DNA from: Patescibacteria group bacterium UBA3466 | Lineage (GTDB): Bacteria; Patescibacteriota; Minisyncoccia; Phycocordibacterales; UBA918 | Direction: 5' to 3' | Length of the DNA: 64,000 bases | NCBI GenBank assembly: GCA_002378195.1 | Contig: DFRJ01000002.1 | Span: 329,677-393,676 of the forward strand | Part shown: positions 6,150 through 33,293 of the stretch, one piece after another | Layout: every line of letters begins with the position of its first letter | Position numbering within the stretch: position 1 is the stretch's first letter | The notes under the pieces: model-generated | What the model was told of the DNA's origin: nothing | What the model saw: only the letters and a program-made list of their open reading frames with translations | The model's database searches: none | Program-made: the position numbers and the translations under genes

Positions 6150-7292
6150 CTAGAATGTAGGTGTTGCAATGTAAGTTAGGTTTGTACTGTAGTCATCAGC
6201 CGCTTCTTGCAGAGCTGTGATTTCAACTTGGTAAAGTACGTCAACCTGACCAATGTTTGCTGTTGAGTTATCAGCTGGGTTATTGTGGTGCATAACTTCA
6301 CGTGGTGTAGTTGATGCTGCGATAAACTCATTAGCTGCAAACTCACTTCCGTAGAATCCTCCAACTGAGTTCAAGTCTGCATCGTTAGTGGTTACACCCC
6401 AGTGTCCCCAGGTAGTTGGGTCATTAACATCTGGTGATGGTGAGGCCCATACTGTATCTGACTCTGACTGATCACCGCCTTCGACGAAGGTGTCGATAAT
6501 AGCTCCAGTTGCAGATTCAAGGTCTCCATCTGTCTGTACTGTAACTACGAATCCGTTTCTTGCATTAGTTTGAACGTTCAACCGTTGCGCTAACGCTTCT
6601 GGTTCTCCAGCTACAAGTGTACCGAAATCTAGCAGCACATCTGAAGATGATCCTGTAGTAGAAGTACCATTAACTGCTGTTGATGTGGCAAGACCTGTAA
6701 TAGTGAAGTCGAACACTGTATCAACGATAGCTCGTACTTCAACGCTATCAACGATAGCTACTCGAGTACGACCTGAGTCACCACTAGCAGAGTCAACGAA
6801 GATTTCATATGATCCGAGTGTTGATGGGTTAGTAATAACTCCAGACGCGACTACGATCTCTACTGTATCACCCGCTGATGCTGCGATTCCGTTGATTGTG
6901 AATGAATCATTGTCTGACGCTACAAATGTTGGAGCTGAGAAACCACCTCCGTTTACTTGAAATGTCAGATCAGAGTTATCGCTGATCACTGAGCTAATGT
7001 CCCCGCCTGCGAAGTCTTGGCCGCCGGCACCGTCATCTTGAGCATCGAAAGTAATTTGGATGTTGTTACCTCCAATAATAGCTGATCCGCCAACTGCAGG
7101 AATCGTAAACTCAATTGAATGAGACGGTTGTGCACTCGGAGCTGAATCAGAAATTGTGTTACTAATGTTTGTAAGGTTAGCTGCTTGTGCATTGTTATAG
7201 ATACCGATTGACATCAATACCATTGCACTTGCAACAAGCGTCGCGACCACTCGTTGCGCAAAGCCAACATTGTTAGTTGCTTTTGCGAACAT
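6150..7292 (-). CDS. Secreted Ser/Thr/Gly-rich surface protein, possibly WxL-like (CscB/C-like). The C-terminus NLTYIATPTF only weakly resembles a WxL motif
   Basis: Signal peptide (MVLMSIGIYNNAQA). It lies next to the DUF916-like gene. The repetitive beta-rich composition is consistent; the WxL assignment is tentative. Confidence 0.4.
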   Translation of the reverse strand: MFAKATNNVGFAQRVVATLVASAMVLMSIGIYNNAQAANLTNISNTISDSAPSAQPSHSIEFTIPAVGGSAIIGGNNIQITFDAQDDGAGGQDFAGGDISSVISDNSDLTFQVNGGGFSAPTFVASDNDSFTINGIAASAGDTVEIVVASGVITNPSTLGSYEIFVDSASGDSGRTRVAIVDSVEVRAIVDTVFDFTITGLATSTAVNGTSTTGSSSDVLLDFGTLVAGEPEALAQRLNVQTNARNGFVVTVQTDGDLESATGAIIDTFVEGGDQSESDTVWASPSPDVNDPTTWGHWGVTTNDADLNSVGGFYGSEFAANEFIAASTTPREVMHHNNPADNSTANIGQVDVLYQVEITALQEAADDYSTNLTYIATPTF

Positions 7293-7602
7293 ATTTTTAT
7301 TATTTATATTTTTGTTAAATAACTTTTACTTCGAAGAAATTCTTTGAAGTGTATCGGCTAAACGGGTTTGTGGAGGGACAAATTTCTACGTTTATGAGAA
7401 AAACTCAGCCTTCGTAGTTTTGTCCTATGCTTAACCGATCTTCCACTATTGTACAAAGTCTTTGAGGTTATGTCCGATTTCAGCTGTTGATAACTATTAC
7501 GGACTGACCTTATTTCCCTTAAATTAGCTTATTTTATATGGACATTTTACTTAAGATTGGGACATTTCTTTTTTTGCTTCTAAAATACAAATGTCCAATA
7601 AT

Positions 7603-8859
7603 TTATCTGGCTTTAACCCTTTTCAGATCTGACCACTGAGTCGTATAAGCTGGTGACCTGGTTTCTGATCTTGATTGCCACTCAGCTTTTTTCAGCCGAC
7701 TTCCGATCTGCACCAATTCACTATCCGCTTTCTCATTTAAAATATCGATAGAACTCATGAGGTCTCTCCTGTCTTCTTCTTTGCAATCATTAAACATAGT
7801 AGTCTGACTTCCTCCAGCCGGCACCAAATTAGATAAGCTAACTCCGACTTTTTTATAGGGCACATCTGGCTCATAGAGCCGCTCCACCAAGTTGCTGGCG
7901 ACTTTCATTAAACTAAGTGTATCGCTAGTTGGGTTGATAAATATCGTTTCATCTGAGCCTCCTCTTAGTAGAAAATCTCCATGTCGATTAGTTCCCAGAT
8001 AAACTCTAATATTCAGTGTTTCTTTAGCTATTCTTCGCAGATCTTCTGCTACATGCCGCACATGATAAGCTACTGCATCTTGCAATACCGCCAGCTCCTT
8101 TGTCTCAACTTTGAAGGATCTTGAACTTAAAATACTCTTTTGTTTTCGATCACCCTGCTCTATCAACAAAGCCGGTTCACTACGCAGTTCAGACTGTATT
8201 CTAAGTCCATTTATACCGAATAATTTAGCCACCACCGACCGATCTAGCGCTGTTAAATCAGCCACTGTTTTTAAACCATGCGATCGATAATTGAGCTCGG
8301 AACTAGCGCCCAGTCCCCATATTTCCGCCAATCTTATACCGTCCACCAATCCGTCCCACTCAGTTTCTCCAATAACCCTTACACCTACGCCTTTTTTGGC
8401 TACGGCGTTGGCGTACTTTGCCTGAGTCTTGGTGAGAGACACGCCAATCGAAACGGGTATACCAACCTCTTGCAAGATGATTGATCTCAGATTATTAGCA
8501 ATATCTTCCACCTCAGCCTCTGGCGGTAAAGTAAAGAATGCTTCGTCGACTGAATACTGCTCAACGTTTGCCAGCTCTCGCTTCACTACCTCAAAAACTC
8601 GCTTTGAGATATCTCGATACAGAGCCAAATGCGAAGAGAACGTTACAATTCCCTCTTTTTTAACAATGTCCTTTATCTTAAAATAAGGGACACCCATAGG
8701 GACACCTATGTCCTTTACTTCTTTAGAGCGAGCCACTACACAGCCGTCATTACTTGATAAAACCAGTACCGGAACATTCTTTAATTCGGGCCTAAAGAGT
8801 CTTTCGCAGGATACAAAAAAATTATTACAATCTAACAATCCGATCCACTGCTTTTTCAT
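7603..8859 (-). CDS. umuC: Y-family translesion DNA polymerase, UmuC-like (Pol V catalytic subunit)
   Basis: N-terminal LLDCNNFFVSCERLFRPEL...VLSSNDGCVVARS matches UmuC (LCDVNAFYASCE...VLSNNDGCVIAR). The catalytic SVDEAF motif is present. The C-terminus YTTQWSDLKRVKA matches the UmuC C-terminus YTTRWSDLLRVK. Confidence 0.85.
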   Translation of the reverse strand: MKKQWIGLLDCNNFFVSCERLFRPELKNVPVLVLSSNDGCVVARSKEVKDIGVPMGVPYFKIKDIVKKEGIVTFSSHLALYRDISKRVFEVVKRELANVEQYSVDEAFFTLPPEAEVEDIANNLRSIILQEVGIPVSIGVSLTKTQAKYANAVAKKGVGVRVIGETEWDGLVDGIRLAEIWGLGASSELNYRSHGLKTVADLTALDRSVVAKLFGINGLRIQSELRSEPALLIEQGDRKQKSILSSRSFKVETKELAVLQDAVAYHVRHVAEDLRRIAKETLNIRVYLGTNRHGDFLLRGGSDETIFINPTSDTLSLMKVASNLVERLYEPDVPYKKVGVSLSNLVPAGGSQTTMFNDCKEEDRRDLMSSIDILNEKADSELVQIGSRLKKAEWQSRSETRSPAYTTQWSDLKRVKAR

Positions 8860-8898
8860 CTGCTAATTATAGCCAGCAAATCAGATGGGAGCAATCGA

Positions 8899-10110
8899 TT
8901 AGAAGAGTTTCCACATTTTTTGATCTTCCTCCCCGTCCACCTTGAATACTGCCACCCCCTTGAGGCCATAATCTTCCGCCAACTCGACCTTTTCTTCGAT
9001 TGCTTTAGCGTCACTCCAAGTGATCATTCTGACTGGAATTTCAATACCAGCATAAGTAGCCACCAGAAGAGCTTTAGCCGCTGCTTCAAATCCTTTTGGT
9101 GTATCGTCTGGAGTAGGTAAAGCATTAAAAATTTGCCAAGGGGAATCATCAGGGAAATAGGTTATCACCGCCTCGCCACCATCTGTCCTACCGATTGGTG
9201 AATCGTATTTATCAGCCAGCTCTAGTATCCTAGGCTGGTTTAAAGTAGCCACTAAATCATAGTCTTTGTACCATTCTGGAGCGACAGTAACATCCCAAGC
9301 CCGGCCATAGGTAGCCACTCCGAGCATCACCTTATCTTCATCAAAATCATCCAGAGCAAATTCAACAACTTTCTCCGCCCAATCGATATCAGCTACTGGA
9401 TTGTAAGGCACACCTCGCCTTTCATTATTCAGTTTAATATCAGCTCTCTGCTGGTCATAAGCCATAATTTCTACCCAATCGCAGTGGCGGTTTATAGCTC
9501 GGTAATCATTTGCATATTCAATCTCCGCTGGGACAGCGCGAAACCGTGACTCAGGTGGAGTTCTGGCTTCGATCGTACAAGTCAGCTCGTCTCTTCCCAG
9601 CTCATCCTCCAGCTCTTCTAAAAACTCAGAAAAGTAATCAATGGTTTCGGCCAGCTTTGATTCATAGTCGATGTTGATACCATCAAAATCATTACGCTTA
9701 ACCAGCCTGACGATATCGTCTATATGATCTTCTCTTAAATCATTATCACTTAAGACACTATGTATCGCCTCACCATCAAACCACGCAATGGTTGGAATCA
9801 CCTCAACTCGTCGATCTTCAGCTTCATCCAACAAGTCGTCCCAATGATCATCGTCAAAATCGACACGATTTTTTATATCTCCCAATCCTTCCACCTCATA
9901 AACAAACGGATAAATAATATCGATATCCCTAATGTTATCTAGAGCACTTTCAACACCAGCCTCATCAGCCCACCACGGTATCCAGACACCCACTTCTTGC
10001 CGAGCCTCAGCCACTGCTGGCAAGAAGAAAAAACCGGCTAAAATAATGCCGACATAGAGATGTAGTAATGTATTAACTGATGATCTCATATTCTTTAAGA
10101 CGCAAATCAT
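8899..10110 (-). CDS. Glycoside hydrolase family 18 (chitinase-like) secreted or membrane-anchored protein
   Basis: N-terminal TM/signal. The GH18 catalytic motif FDGINIDYE (DGxDxDxE) is present. MLGVATYGRAW (the YGR region) and GLKGVAVFKVDGEED (C-terminal GH18 motif) are also present. Confidence 0.7.
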   Translation of the reverse strand: MICVLKNMRSSVNTLLHLYVGIILAGFFFLPAVAEARQEVGVWIPWWADEAGVESALDNIRDIDIIYPFVYEVEGLGDIKNRVDFDDDHWDDLLDEAEDRRVEVIPTIAWFDGEAIHSVLSDNDLREDHIDDIVRLVKRNDFDGINIDYESKLAETIDYFSEFLEELEDELGRDELTCTIEARTPPESRFRAVPAEIEYANDYRAINRHCDWVEIMAYDQQRADIKLNNERRGVPYNPVADIDWAEKVVEFALDDFDEDKVMLGVATYGRAWDVTVAPEWYKDYDLVATLNQPRILELADKYDSPIGRTDGGEAVITYFPDDSPWQIFNALPTPDDTPKGFEAAAKALLVATYAGIEIPVRMITWSDAKAIEEKVELAEDYGLKGVAVFKVDGEEDQKMWKLF

Positions 10111-30074: not shown

Positions 30075-30141
30075 AATCCTAAGTATATCACCATAAATCT
30101 ACCATTTAATACAATTGGTTATGAGTACCAATATTCATGTA

Positions 30142-30180
30142 CAAAAAAATGGCTTCGCGCATATACATGCGCGAAGCCAT
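30142..30180 (-). terminator. Strong intrinsic terminator: a 14-bp-stem perfect hairpin (ATGGCTTCGCGCAT-ATAC-ATGCGCGAAGCCAT) followed on the minus strand by T8
   Basis: Read directly from the sequence. It lies downstream of the GC-rich ORF. Confidence 0.7.
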
Positions 30181-30224
30181 GGGCAAAGGATTCAAGTGCA
30201 AGCACATAGAATCCAAAGTCTAGG

Positions 30225-30818
30225 TCACCTTGCACCAACCGCCGCGGGGCAGTCGTCGCGCCAGTCGTAGCCGAGCCAGTTAGCGTACCAGTGCCACCTG
30301 TCGCCGACCCAGAGGAGATAACGGACGTAGAGGCGGCCGTCCCGGTTGCGGTAGATCGTCCCCCAGAAGAAAACGGCTTTGCCTTTCCACTCCTCGGGAA
30401 TGAGATGCGGTTTGGCGATCAGGTAGTCGAGAACATTTGCGTTCAAGACAGGCTTGTTCGCCAACCCCTTGCGGAGCTTGTAGCCTTTAATCCTTTTGCC
30501 GTTCTTCTGGCCTTTGTCGCGGTGGAGCGCATTCTTCTGGGATTCTTTGTCCCATTTGAACGCACCGCGTACTCGATTTGGGAGTTGCCCGTCGTCGGAC
30601 AGAATCGACCAGCCGTCGGGAACGTGCGGCTTGGCGTCGCAGTCGATGATGTGCTCAGGGGTGATAATTTCGACATCGCCAAGCAGGACGCGACGGACGG
30701 TGGCGAGCATATCCCCTTGCGAGAGCTTCTTCACTTCAGCCGGAGTCCAGCCATTTCGCTCGAAAGCGTGATCGAGTTCCGCAGCTTGGCGCGTAGACAT
30801 GATGAACCTGTCAGTCAT
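30225..30818 (-). CDS. Hypothetical protein encoded in an anomalously GC-rich segment (W/R-rich C-terminus), probably horizontally acquired
   Basis: AGAGGA RBS 8 nt upstream of the ATG at 30818. Local GC is visibly much higher than in flanking DNA. A long ORF overlaps on the opposite strand (30291-30935), as expected in GC-rich DNA. Confidence 0.5.
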   Translation of the reverse strand: MTDRFIMSTRQAAELDHAFERNGWTPAEVKKLSQGDMLATVRRVLLGDVEIITPEHIIDCDAKPHVPDGWSILSDDGQLPNRVRGAFKWDKESQKNALHRDKGQKNGKRIKGYKLRKGLANKPVLNANVLDYLIAKPHLIPEEWKGKAVFFWGTIYRNRDGRLYVRYLLWVGDRWHWYANWLGYDWRDDCPAAVGAR

Positions 30819-31067
30819 GACGTGTTCCTCTTTGGTTGTGTGACGTGTTCGAAGACGAACGTGTCACTTGCCAGCGGGCCTAACCGAGTATTTAGGGTTT
30901 GCCGTAGCAGCCAAAGTCCAACTTTTAGACACTGACTGCCACGGCAGACGTAAGTTTAAAAGGATCATTCGATCTAAATTTTGCCACAATATATTAGCAT
31001 TGTAAAGACAAGCACCCTAAACCGTCTTACACCTAGAATCAGATTGGTGCACACAGAATCTCAATCA

Positions 31068-31181
31068 TGGTGCAAGGATGCGCCTCGCAAAGAAAGCGGA
31101 GAAGACAGGATTCGAACCTGCTCACGGTAAAATAATCTCCCAGATTATTTTACCCCACACACGCTTTCCCCTGCAGTGCGG
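31068..31181 (-). repeat. 114-nt repeat A, copy 1. It is tRNA-like: a T-arm-like GCAGGTTCGAATCCTGT plus an acceptor-like 3' strand, a perfect 12-bp hairpin (GGTAAAATAATC-TGGGA-GATTATTTTACC), and ...TTGCACCA at its minus-strand end
   Basis: It matches 31993-32106 with 1 mismatch. I could not fold it as a complete tRNA: no 5' acceptor strand is present. Confidence 0.6.
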
Positions 31182-31272
31182 GCGGTCTCGAGTTAGGACC
31201 GTGTGATACCAAGCCCTGCTTGACCGACTCAACGATATTTTGGATTTAAACCGATAGTGCCTCGAGCACTTA

Positions 31273-31869
31273 CTACAATGAAGCTTCAAACTCTTTTTTA
31301 AACACCGCTAATACATACTTTGAAATTGCGTAGATGCCTAAAATATGACTTTCAGTTTCATTGAAGGACCAACTTCTACAATGCAATAGAGTATCGTTAT
31401 AGTTTTTATCTGAATGGGCACCCTCCTTATTCGCAACCGATCTTATCAGTTCTCTTATGGTAATTTGTTCCTTGAAAAGGATTTGATCAACCCATTCATC
31501 CACCGACATTTCTTCCATTTCCTTTGAGAAGAGTAAAGTGAATATAGGTATTGTTTCATTTATTACCTCCAACCTGCCTGGCATCACATTCTGTAAACCA
31601 TTTAGTAACGATGGTGTGTTTTCAAGTATTTTTACAAAGTGGAGTTTATGTAACTTAAAATCTGGAATGATACGATTTATAAGTGGAGAAGGGTTCGTTT
31701 CACACAGTAACTTTCTTAGCTCAACTGCCATTGGTTGATATGTGAGAAAATTACCTGCTTCATAGGTTCCAATGTGAGTTTCGAGAAGTGTGAAACTATT
31801 TTTTAAATCCTGTTTGTTCTTTTCTGAAGCGCTCATGCCGTCATTATAAACAAAACCAGCACGAAACAT
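31273..31869 (-). CDS. Hypothetical low-GC protein (198 aa), the cargo between repeat A copy 1 and the tRNA-Ser 3' fragment
   Basis: ORF with no family recognised. It sits inside the tRNA-associated repeat structure. Confidence 0.5.
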   Translation of the reverse strand: MFRAGFVYNDGMSASEKNKQDLKNSFTLLETHIGTYEAGNFLTYQPMAVELRKLLCETNPSPLINRIIPDFKLHKLHFVKILENTPSLLNGLQNVMPGRLEVINETIPIFTLLFSKEMEEMSVDEWVDQILFKEQITIRELIRSVANKEGAHSDKNYNDTLLHCRSWSFNETESHILGIYAISKYVLAVFKKEFEASL

Positions 31870-31893
31870 AGTGTCTCGTGCTAGCTCTAAACG

Positions 31894-31942
31894 GCGGAGA
31901 GTGAGGGATTCGAACCCTCGATACGATTTCTCGTATACATCC
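31894..31942 (-). repeat. 49-nt direct repeat of the 3' part of tRNA-Ser(GGA) (variable arm, T-arm and acceptor 3' strand); an att-like scar
   Basis: It is identical to 32104-32152 of the intact tRNA. Confidence 0.7.
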
Positions 31943-31992: not shown

Positions 31993-32106
31993 TGGTGCAA
32001 GGATGCGCCTCGCAAAGAAAGCGGAGAAGACAGGATTCGAACCTGCTCACGGTAAAATAATCTCCCAGATTATTTTACCCCACACACGCTTTCCCTTGCA
32101 GTGCGG
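31993..32106 (-). repeat. 114-nt repeat A, copy 2, abutting (3-nt overlap) the 3' end of intact tRNA-Ser
   Basis: See copy 1. Confidence 0.6.
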
Positions 32107-32190
32107 AGAGTGAGGGATTCGAACCCTCGATACGATTTCTCGTATACATCCTTTCCAAGGATGCGCGATCGACCACTCTGCCAACTCTCC
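32104..32190 (-). tRNA. tRNA-Ser (anticodon GGA), type II with long variable arm; the 3' CCA is not encoded
   Basis: The minus strand reads GGAGAGT-TG-GCAGAGTGGTCGATCGC-G-CATCC-TTGGAAA-GGATG-TATACGAGAAATCGTATC-GAGGG-TTCGAAT-CCCTC-ACTCTCC-G. The anticodon loop is TTGGAAA. A variable-arm hairpin is present. Confidence 0.75.
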
Positions 32191-33231: not shown

Positions 33232-33236
33232 TGTTT

Positions 33237-33270
33237 GTTACGTAGCATGTTACGTAACATGCTACGTAAC
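33237..33270. promoter_or_regulatory. Perfect 34-bp palindrome GTTACGTAGCATGTTACG|TAACATGCTACGTAAC (three TACGTA cores 12 bp apart) immediately upstream of htpX
   Basis: Read directly from the sequence. The half-site TTACGTAGCATG resembles TAACGCGCATG at 381-417. Confidence 0.55.
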
Positions 33271-33293
33271 AACACCACATTCGCCTCAAAGCA

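Follow-up and report, generated by a model that had tools for sequence, protein, structure and literature searches.

The nearest known system to the locus described here is that of the CPR DGR targets (clade 2 in Roux et al. 2021; in Wu et al. 2018, the 'CPR set' and its UVR classes). CPR DGRs constitute a clade of their own, and their targets typically carry neither TM segments nor recognisable domains; the function of the non-membrane targets has been described as an open question (PMC8144416). The VR classes of the CPR are of unassigned fold (PMC5758913). DGR variable proteins with a C-type-lectin fold and solved structures, available for comparison, are Mtd (1yu0), TvpA (2y3c), and TaqVP (5vf4). 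Retrohoming of the Bordetella phage DGR depends on a hairpin/cruciform located directly 3' of the VR (PMC3240598). The gene reported here, T, is similar to the CPR targets in that its homologs of 50-60% identity reside in target-TR-Avd-RT cassettes with adenine-specific TR/VR mismatches, as well as in its C-terminal VR, small size, and lack of a TM segment and of a Pfam domain. It differs from them in that TR, Avd, and RT are all missing from the 64 kb that hold this copy and in that its VR is constant between assemblies.

Within the window, i.e. the whole stretch of 64,000 nt of DNA that was analysed, two overlapping ORFs, of 197 aa on the minus strand and of 214 aa on the plus strand, are both present (Table 1). 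T denotes the 197-aa protein and its gene. The first-pass annotation had drawn attention to a GC content visibly above that of the flanking DNA, and the T CDS is indeed the strongest GC outlier of the window. GC is 58.1% in the CDS and 56.8% in 30225-30935 vs. 44.4% for the whole window, and the CDS has the top 594-bp GC value of the window, about 4.8 sd over the mean. By codon position its GC is 0.60, 0.41, and 0.73. The comparison of GC3 that had been proposed was run against 61 window ORFs and sets the 0.73 of T against a mean of 0.431 (sd 0.055). At a resolution of 50 nt the GC-rich block extends from ~30150 to 30950, and it is the entire transcription unit, comprised of 3' hairpins, CDS, and 5' leader. 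The AGAGGA RBS that had been read from the sequence is present, 7 nt ahead of the ATG. As for the terminator, the 14-bp stem holds but the run of eight T does not, being 7 T with the last stem base having been counted, and its description as 'native-style' is not supported, the terminator being conserved together with the gene in other genomes.

Table 1. Features in and around the T gene, with positions in the 64-kb window
Feature	Position	Strand	Remarks
CDS, 197-aa protein (T)	30225..30818	-	ORF; member of the CPR-restricted DGR variable-protein family
Variable region (VR), final ~41 codons	30230..30352	-	aligned with VR/TR pairs of homologs
Inverted repeat GGATTC-N15-GAATCC	30188..30214	-	11 nt past the stop codon; candidate DGR target-site hairpin/cruciform
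Intrinsic terminator	30143..30180	-	14-bp stem at 30149-30180, 4-nt loop, T run
Shine-Dalgarno AGAGGA	30826..30831	-	read from sequence; the equivalent Met is the start in most homologs
Hairpin GTGACACGTTCG-TCTT-CGAACACGTCAC	30840..30867	-	just 5' of the RBS; sequence varies among homologs
Structured 5' leader RNA motif	30868..30949	-	long two-helix hairpin, variable hairpin, GCCCGCUGGCA tail
Promoter-like site TTTACA-17-(TG)CAAAAT	30978..31006	-	consensus match only; just upstream of the leader
Antisense 214-aa ORF	30291..30935	+	not a gene; by-product of GC-rich codons
tRNA-Ser(GGA)	32103-32190	-	islet context
Copy of tRNA-Ser(GGA) 3' half	31894-31942	-	49 nt, repeat of 32103-32151
114-nt repeat with tRNA-like T-arm fragment	31993-32106 and 31068-31181	-	99% identical copies
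ORF198, AT-rich	31273-31869	-	islet neighbour of T

The T protein has 1273 homologs of ~190 aa and 50-71% identity, and all of their named host organisms are Patescibacteria, Paceibacteria, or Sungiibacteriota. Relatives are encoded in 341 of 185,579 species genomes, and a profile search of 1.84 billion representatives gave 4417 clusters (50% identity), of which 1127 have E values up to 1e-30. Residues ~54-189 make up the module that is conserved in the family. In family members P0244 (481 aa), P0245 (804 aa), P0246, and P0247 a C-terminal module of ~135 aa is present in 2-4 tandem copies, which indicates that this unit is a domain open to multiplication. Against Pfam (E up to 1) the T protein gave noise only, with no FGE-sulfatase or DUF1566 match; NCBIfam, PHROGs, and PADLOC gave no match to it, querying PDB sequences with the profile of the family gave none, and Foldseek searches of the T model against PDB and BFVD gave none that was significant. 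In the AlphaFold (AF2) model, with a pLDDT of 93, three helices make up the N-terminal part and the C-terminal domain is rich in beta structure. Neither a TM segment nor a signal peptide is found in T (maximum KD hydropathy 0.79). The C-terminal domain is putatively of C-type-lectin-like fold and would bind a ligand.

Neighbour clustering, GC analysis, and motif counts were carried out on 80 related loci. A recurrent arrangement is seen among these, in which the T gene is followed ~850 nt downstream by a gene for a 330-370-aa protein, with an ORF of 110-135 aa sitting on the opposite strand between the two. The larger neighbour carries the LGNLTSQ and YADD motifs and is a reverse transcriptase (RVT_1, E 1.8e-23); the smaller is bAvd-like (PF22296, E 1.3e-11, over the curated cut-off). 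A repeat of the final ~122 nt of the T gene lies 320-400 nt downstream of it in 33 of the 80 loci, and where an RT is adjacent (24 loci) TR adenines account for 394 of 445 TR/VR mismatches. Adenine-specific mismatches along with Avd and RT identify the arrangement as a DGR, with the T family as its variable protein, the 3' end of the gene as the VR, and the downstream copy as the TR. The T family is thus a CPR-restricted family of DGR variable proteins. The first-pass annotation had recognised no family for the protein and had suggested nucleic-acid binding for its Trp/Arg-rich C-terminus; the family can now be named, and the C-terminus is the DGR variable region and gives no evidence for such binding. 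A complete cassette is ordered as T gene, terminator, TR, Avd (opposite strand), and RT. In such a cassette an RT-Avd complex copies the TR RNA with errors at adenines, and the mutated cDNA overwrites the final ~122 nt of the T gene, whereby ~12-16 codons of the putative C-terminal ligand-binding domain are randomised.

DGR state varies within the family. Among the 59 loci with at least 2.5 kb of sequence downstream of T, 22 have TR and RT, 5 have TR only, 30 have neither, and in the other 2 the sole element is an RT that is distant or partial. Solo copies are common, 30 of the 59 being without any DGR machinery. The loci with TR only (L015, L029, L043, L050, and L075) keep a TR with adenine-biased mismatches, but the 7-10 kb downstream are free of RT; such loci may be intermediates in the decay of DGRs to solo genes. 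Some loci have an additional T-like gene, or an additional VR/TR-like repeat plus RT (L002:10822-11481, L009 at ~+6257 from the T stop, and L071 at ~+7000-9000), which points to tandem paralogs or multi-target DGRs in the family.

The 3' elements of the window copy are shared with related loci. The inverted repeat past the stop codon is conserved at 80-96% with L048, L015, L003, and L038, of which L003 is a complete DGR, and by analogy with the Bordetella phage element it is a candidate DGR target-site hairpin/cruciform. Homologous terminators follow the T gene in L048, L015, and L003, and their stems display compensatory changes.

At the 5' end, the leader of the window copy gives a CM match of 81 bits. 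This motif lies 50-150 nt 5' of the T start codon in about 46 of the 80 loci, with and without DGR, and 47 instances were aligned. It begins with an 18-bp two-helix hairpin; the next hairpin is variable, and the GCCCGCUGGCA tail after it is conserved. Compensatory changes occur at 17 of the 18 pairs; pairing is seen in 94.9% of cells, as compared with 78.3% for shuffled controls and 34-47% where the partners were slid, and double-change cells number 131 vs. 31 expected. At one pair U.G is present in 38 of the 47 sequences, which indicates that the sense strand is the strand that folds. The MFE z-score of the whole leader is -5.45, and no match to Rfam 15 was found within 30819-31067 at E up to 1. 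With a conserved and covarying hairpin domain at the transcript 5' end the leader is similar to cis-regulatory or stabilising 5' leader RNAs (riboswitch-like, 5' stabiliser hairpins); unlike those known, it has no Rfam family and it also precedes unrelated genes in two loci. These are L068:5975-6059 (+), ahead of a gene for a 177-aa protein, and L032:17648-17725 (-), ahead of one for a 228-aa secreted PEP-CTERM-like protein, and thus the motif may be a more general CPR 5' element. An association of the leader motif with GC-rich genes downstream of it was rejected, as these two non-T cases proved inconsistent.

The nearest relatives of the host have 40-42% GC and share 87-91% (GroEL), 83-85% (HtpX), and 87-88% (BipA) aa identity with it. 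Gene order in these sisters is GroES, GroEL, LemA, o129, HtpX, (DUF3137), tRNA-Ser(GGA), a variable segment, ORF168, ORF200, ORF231, and BipA. Presence in sister genomes, a check that had been suggested for this ORF, was examined at five sister loci (L089-L093), where the flanking synteny is kept and T and ORF198 are both missing. In L089 the ORF168 homolog lies 269 nt after the tRNA; L090, identical in HtpX, has two other genes there, and L092 and L093 have three others. With inserts that differ from strain to strain, the region 3' of tRNA-Ser is a variable islet in which T is accessory. The T gene is accessory and was probably acquired horizontally, so in this part the first-pass annotation, which had argued for horizontal acquisition, was right; its high-GC donor is taken up below.

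The sequence that natively flanks the tRNA in the sisters corresponds to window positions 31893-31854, which adjoin the partial tRNA copy at 31894-31942. Nested direct repeats are present by the tRNA, of 49 nt (31894-31942/32103-32151) and of 114 nt (31068-31181/31993-32106), the latter holding a long hairpin and a tRNA-like T-arm and acceptor fragment (GCAGGTTCGAATCCTGTCTTCTCCGC). The repeats look like scars of serial integrations. No integrase or recombinase is encoded in the islet, the interval from tRNA-Ser to ORF168 holding only ORF198 and T. ORF198 has 35.5% GC and a GC3 of 0.33, with no Pfam match and a weak match to phrog_7805 (E 1.5e-5); judged by composition, it fits the usual picture of a 'foreign' islet gene better than T does. 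The motifs that flank ORF198 (31854-31890 and 31177-31222) recur between islet genes of L090 (3402-3439 and 3974-4058), where they are joined head-to-tail as expected at successive cassette junctions, a hint that cassettes may be arrayed behind tRNA-Ser. The region is similar to tRNA-linked islets in that T adjoins tRNA-Ser, in its direct repeats of tRNA 3' fragments, in its absence from sisters, and in its strain-variable cargo. It is unlike them in lacking an integrase gene, in its length of only ~2 kb, and in that its atypical GC comes from the gene family and not from a donor. Adjacency to a tRNA was rejected as a feature of the T family, since a tRNA is present within 2.5 kb in only 5 of the 80 loci. 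Elsewhere in the window, a perfect 38-bp palindrome at 33235-33272 (TTGTTACGTAGCATGTTAC|GTAACATGCTACGTAACAA) lies in the gap of 62 nt that immediately precedes htpX. An operator or a terminator is possible, and the sequence does not follow the CIRCE consensus.

The first-pass annotation had read the GC content of T as the signature of a high-GC donor. A recent import that has yet to ameliorate would agree with T being the GC outlier of the window and with its place in a tRNA-adjacent islet missing from sister genomes, and some CPR hosts of the family do reach 55-60% GC, with only a small excess there. However, the T gene is higher in GC than its flanks in 77 of the 80 loci, in hosts that range from 33 to 60% GC (mean excess +0.109; mean GC3 0.71), and the excess begins at the start codon and ends at the stop codon, amounting to +0.09-0.10 in the gene body and +0.18-0.21 in the last 100 nt. 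Within 24 complete cassettes GC3 is 0.674 for the T body, 0.458 for RT, and 0.479 for host genes, and T exceeds RT in 23 of the 24 (p = 3e-8), so that an RT gene less than 1 kb away in the same cassette has host-like GC3. At fourfold sites of homologs below 65% aa identity, the observed identity of 0.36-0.42 compares with 0.32-0.35 expected from composition. These sites are near saturation, which means that divergence has lasted as long as amelioration needs, and yet GC3 remains ~0.2 above that of the host; the bias is therefore maintained and not residual. The nearest homolog, moreover, is only 71% identical, and thus no recent donor is visible. A donor signature is on these grounds very unlikely. 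High GC is a trait of the T family, not the mark of a high-GC donor, and the excess is equal in solo and DGR-linked copies. Translational selection in a very highly expressed gene would be in keeping with the favouring of C-ending codons in the T body (C3 0.39-0.42 vs. 0.21-0.24 in host genes) and with an mRNA that has a stable 5' hairpin and 3' hairpins. It is nonetheless unlikely as the source of the high GC3, the bias being of about equal size in hosts of very different GC and missing from the chaperone genes of the window, which are highly expressed (GC3 of 0.46 for GroEL and 0.33 for GroES); these two genes also leave expression-linked codon bias unsupported as a genome-wide habit. A plus-strand gene whose constraint raises GC is suggested by the 214-aa ORF, which is open antisense to the whole CDS; the first-pass annotation had itself attributed openness on both strands to high GC, and so it turned out. 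In 81 family genes the longest antisense open run averages 135.9 codons vs. 137.2 after synonymous shuffling, only 44% of family genes have an antisense frame that stays open throughout, the product has no family match, and all conservation tracks the minus-strand frame. The 214-aa ORF was accordingly rejected as a gene, and the probability of such a gene is negligible.

The maintained bias of the T family has two parts. At third positions in the VR, A3 is 0.03-0.05 and C3 is 0.57-0.60. Adenines would be tolerated in the VR only where variability is wanted, so that invariant codons would avoid A and variable codons would be NNC; the VR composition fits such a DGR design, with adenines confined to codons meant to vary. 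In the T body A3 and T3 are each depleted by ~40% and C3 goes up from 0.235 to 0.39, and depletion of adenine over the whole CDS as a guard against off-target DGR mutagenesis was rejected, because outside the VR the two are depleted about equally. The rest of the CDS has a strong synonymous GC/C3 bias, for which the candidate causes are selection for mRNA stability, in view of the hairpins at the 5' and 3' ends, expression-related selection peculiar to the T gene, and GC-biased conversion in a recombining gene. The C-terminal half of T is 83% identical to L048 at the nucleotide level and the N-terminal half is unalignable, so the T gene visibly recombines.

For the window copy itself, a sensitive blastn search found no repeat of 30100-30520 in the 64-kb window that would be a TR, and six-frame searches of the same 64 kb for RT and Avd, by tblastn and family HMMs, gave no real match (best E 0.013 and 0.6). 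This absence covers at least 30 kb on either side of T in a genome whose longest contig is 638 kb. A pattern-based scan of metagenome contigs for a remote TR gave 0 matches and is uninformative, the T gene itself being missing from that collection. The VR backbone is kept and departs from family TRs almost only at AAC-type codons, and the VR thus looks like a product of past adenine mutagenesis. In solo copies L048 and L015, which are close in sequence, the VR differs from that of the window at those TR-AAC positions only. The exact T protein was found on 11 contigs, and eight loci (L081-L088, from ENA, JGI, NCBI, and Logan; Tara Oceans) are 100% identical to the window over all overlaps. All seven of these contigs that reach the VR (L081-L085, L087, and L088) are identical in it, and the VR is regarded as static here, as judged from consensus assemblies in which minority variants would be missed. 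The eighth, L086 (JGI 3300020439), breaks at 30161, inside the terminator hairpin 3' of the gene, where the seven others read through; chance, low coverage, or VR heterogeneity in that sample could be the reason. The 90% identity cluster of T holds this sequence alone. That T is instead an active target, on which RT, Avd, and TR act in trans from another part of the same genome, is improbable. Such service would be consistent with the intact VR backbone and with the conservation of the post-VR hairpin and of the reading frame, and remote targets have been documented for other DGRs (PMC5758913). Against it, TR, RT, and Avd are all missing from the 64 kb, the VR does not differ among the independent assemblies that extend into it, which come from several Tara stations, and the 90% cluster is without variants. 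The survey covers 64 kb of the genome, which leaves a remote DGR some probability. The window ORF is very probably a solo ('orphan') member of the CPR-specific DGR variable-protein family, and the DGR would be lost from this genome and not merely remote. The window copy retains the VR backbone, adenine-mutagenesis-like codons, the post-VR hairpin, the terminator, and the structured 5' leader. T is most likely, by prediction, a soluble cytoplasmic binding protein of fixed specificity.

An unannotated 'foreign' ORF can now be recognised as a DGR variable protein whose diversifying machinery is lost or separate, and a local GC spike can reflect the gene family rather than a donor. With about half of the sampled T family standing alone and a few loci with TR only, a stepwise decay of DGRs that leaves fixed binders is suggested. 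In the DGR literature searched no mention was found of a synonymous GC/C bias in the target gene only, with RT free of it, and the target-specific GC bias and the leader RNA may be new here. A bolder reading, which is held tentatively and as rather unlikely, is that CPR DGR targets are self-contained modules, comprised of leader, GC/C3-biased CDS, and post-VR hairpin with terminator, that outlive the retroelement and move alone into tRNA-adjacent cassette sites as 'frozen' binders. If this were true, both the GC bias and the leader would be signs that CPR DGR targets have a requirement so far unrecognised, for which mRNA stability or regulation, or GC-biased conversion tied to frequent recombination or retrohoming, would be candidates.
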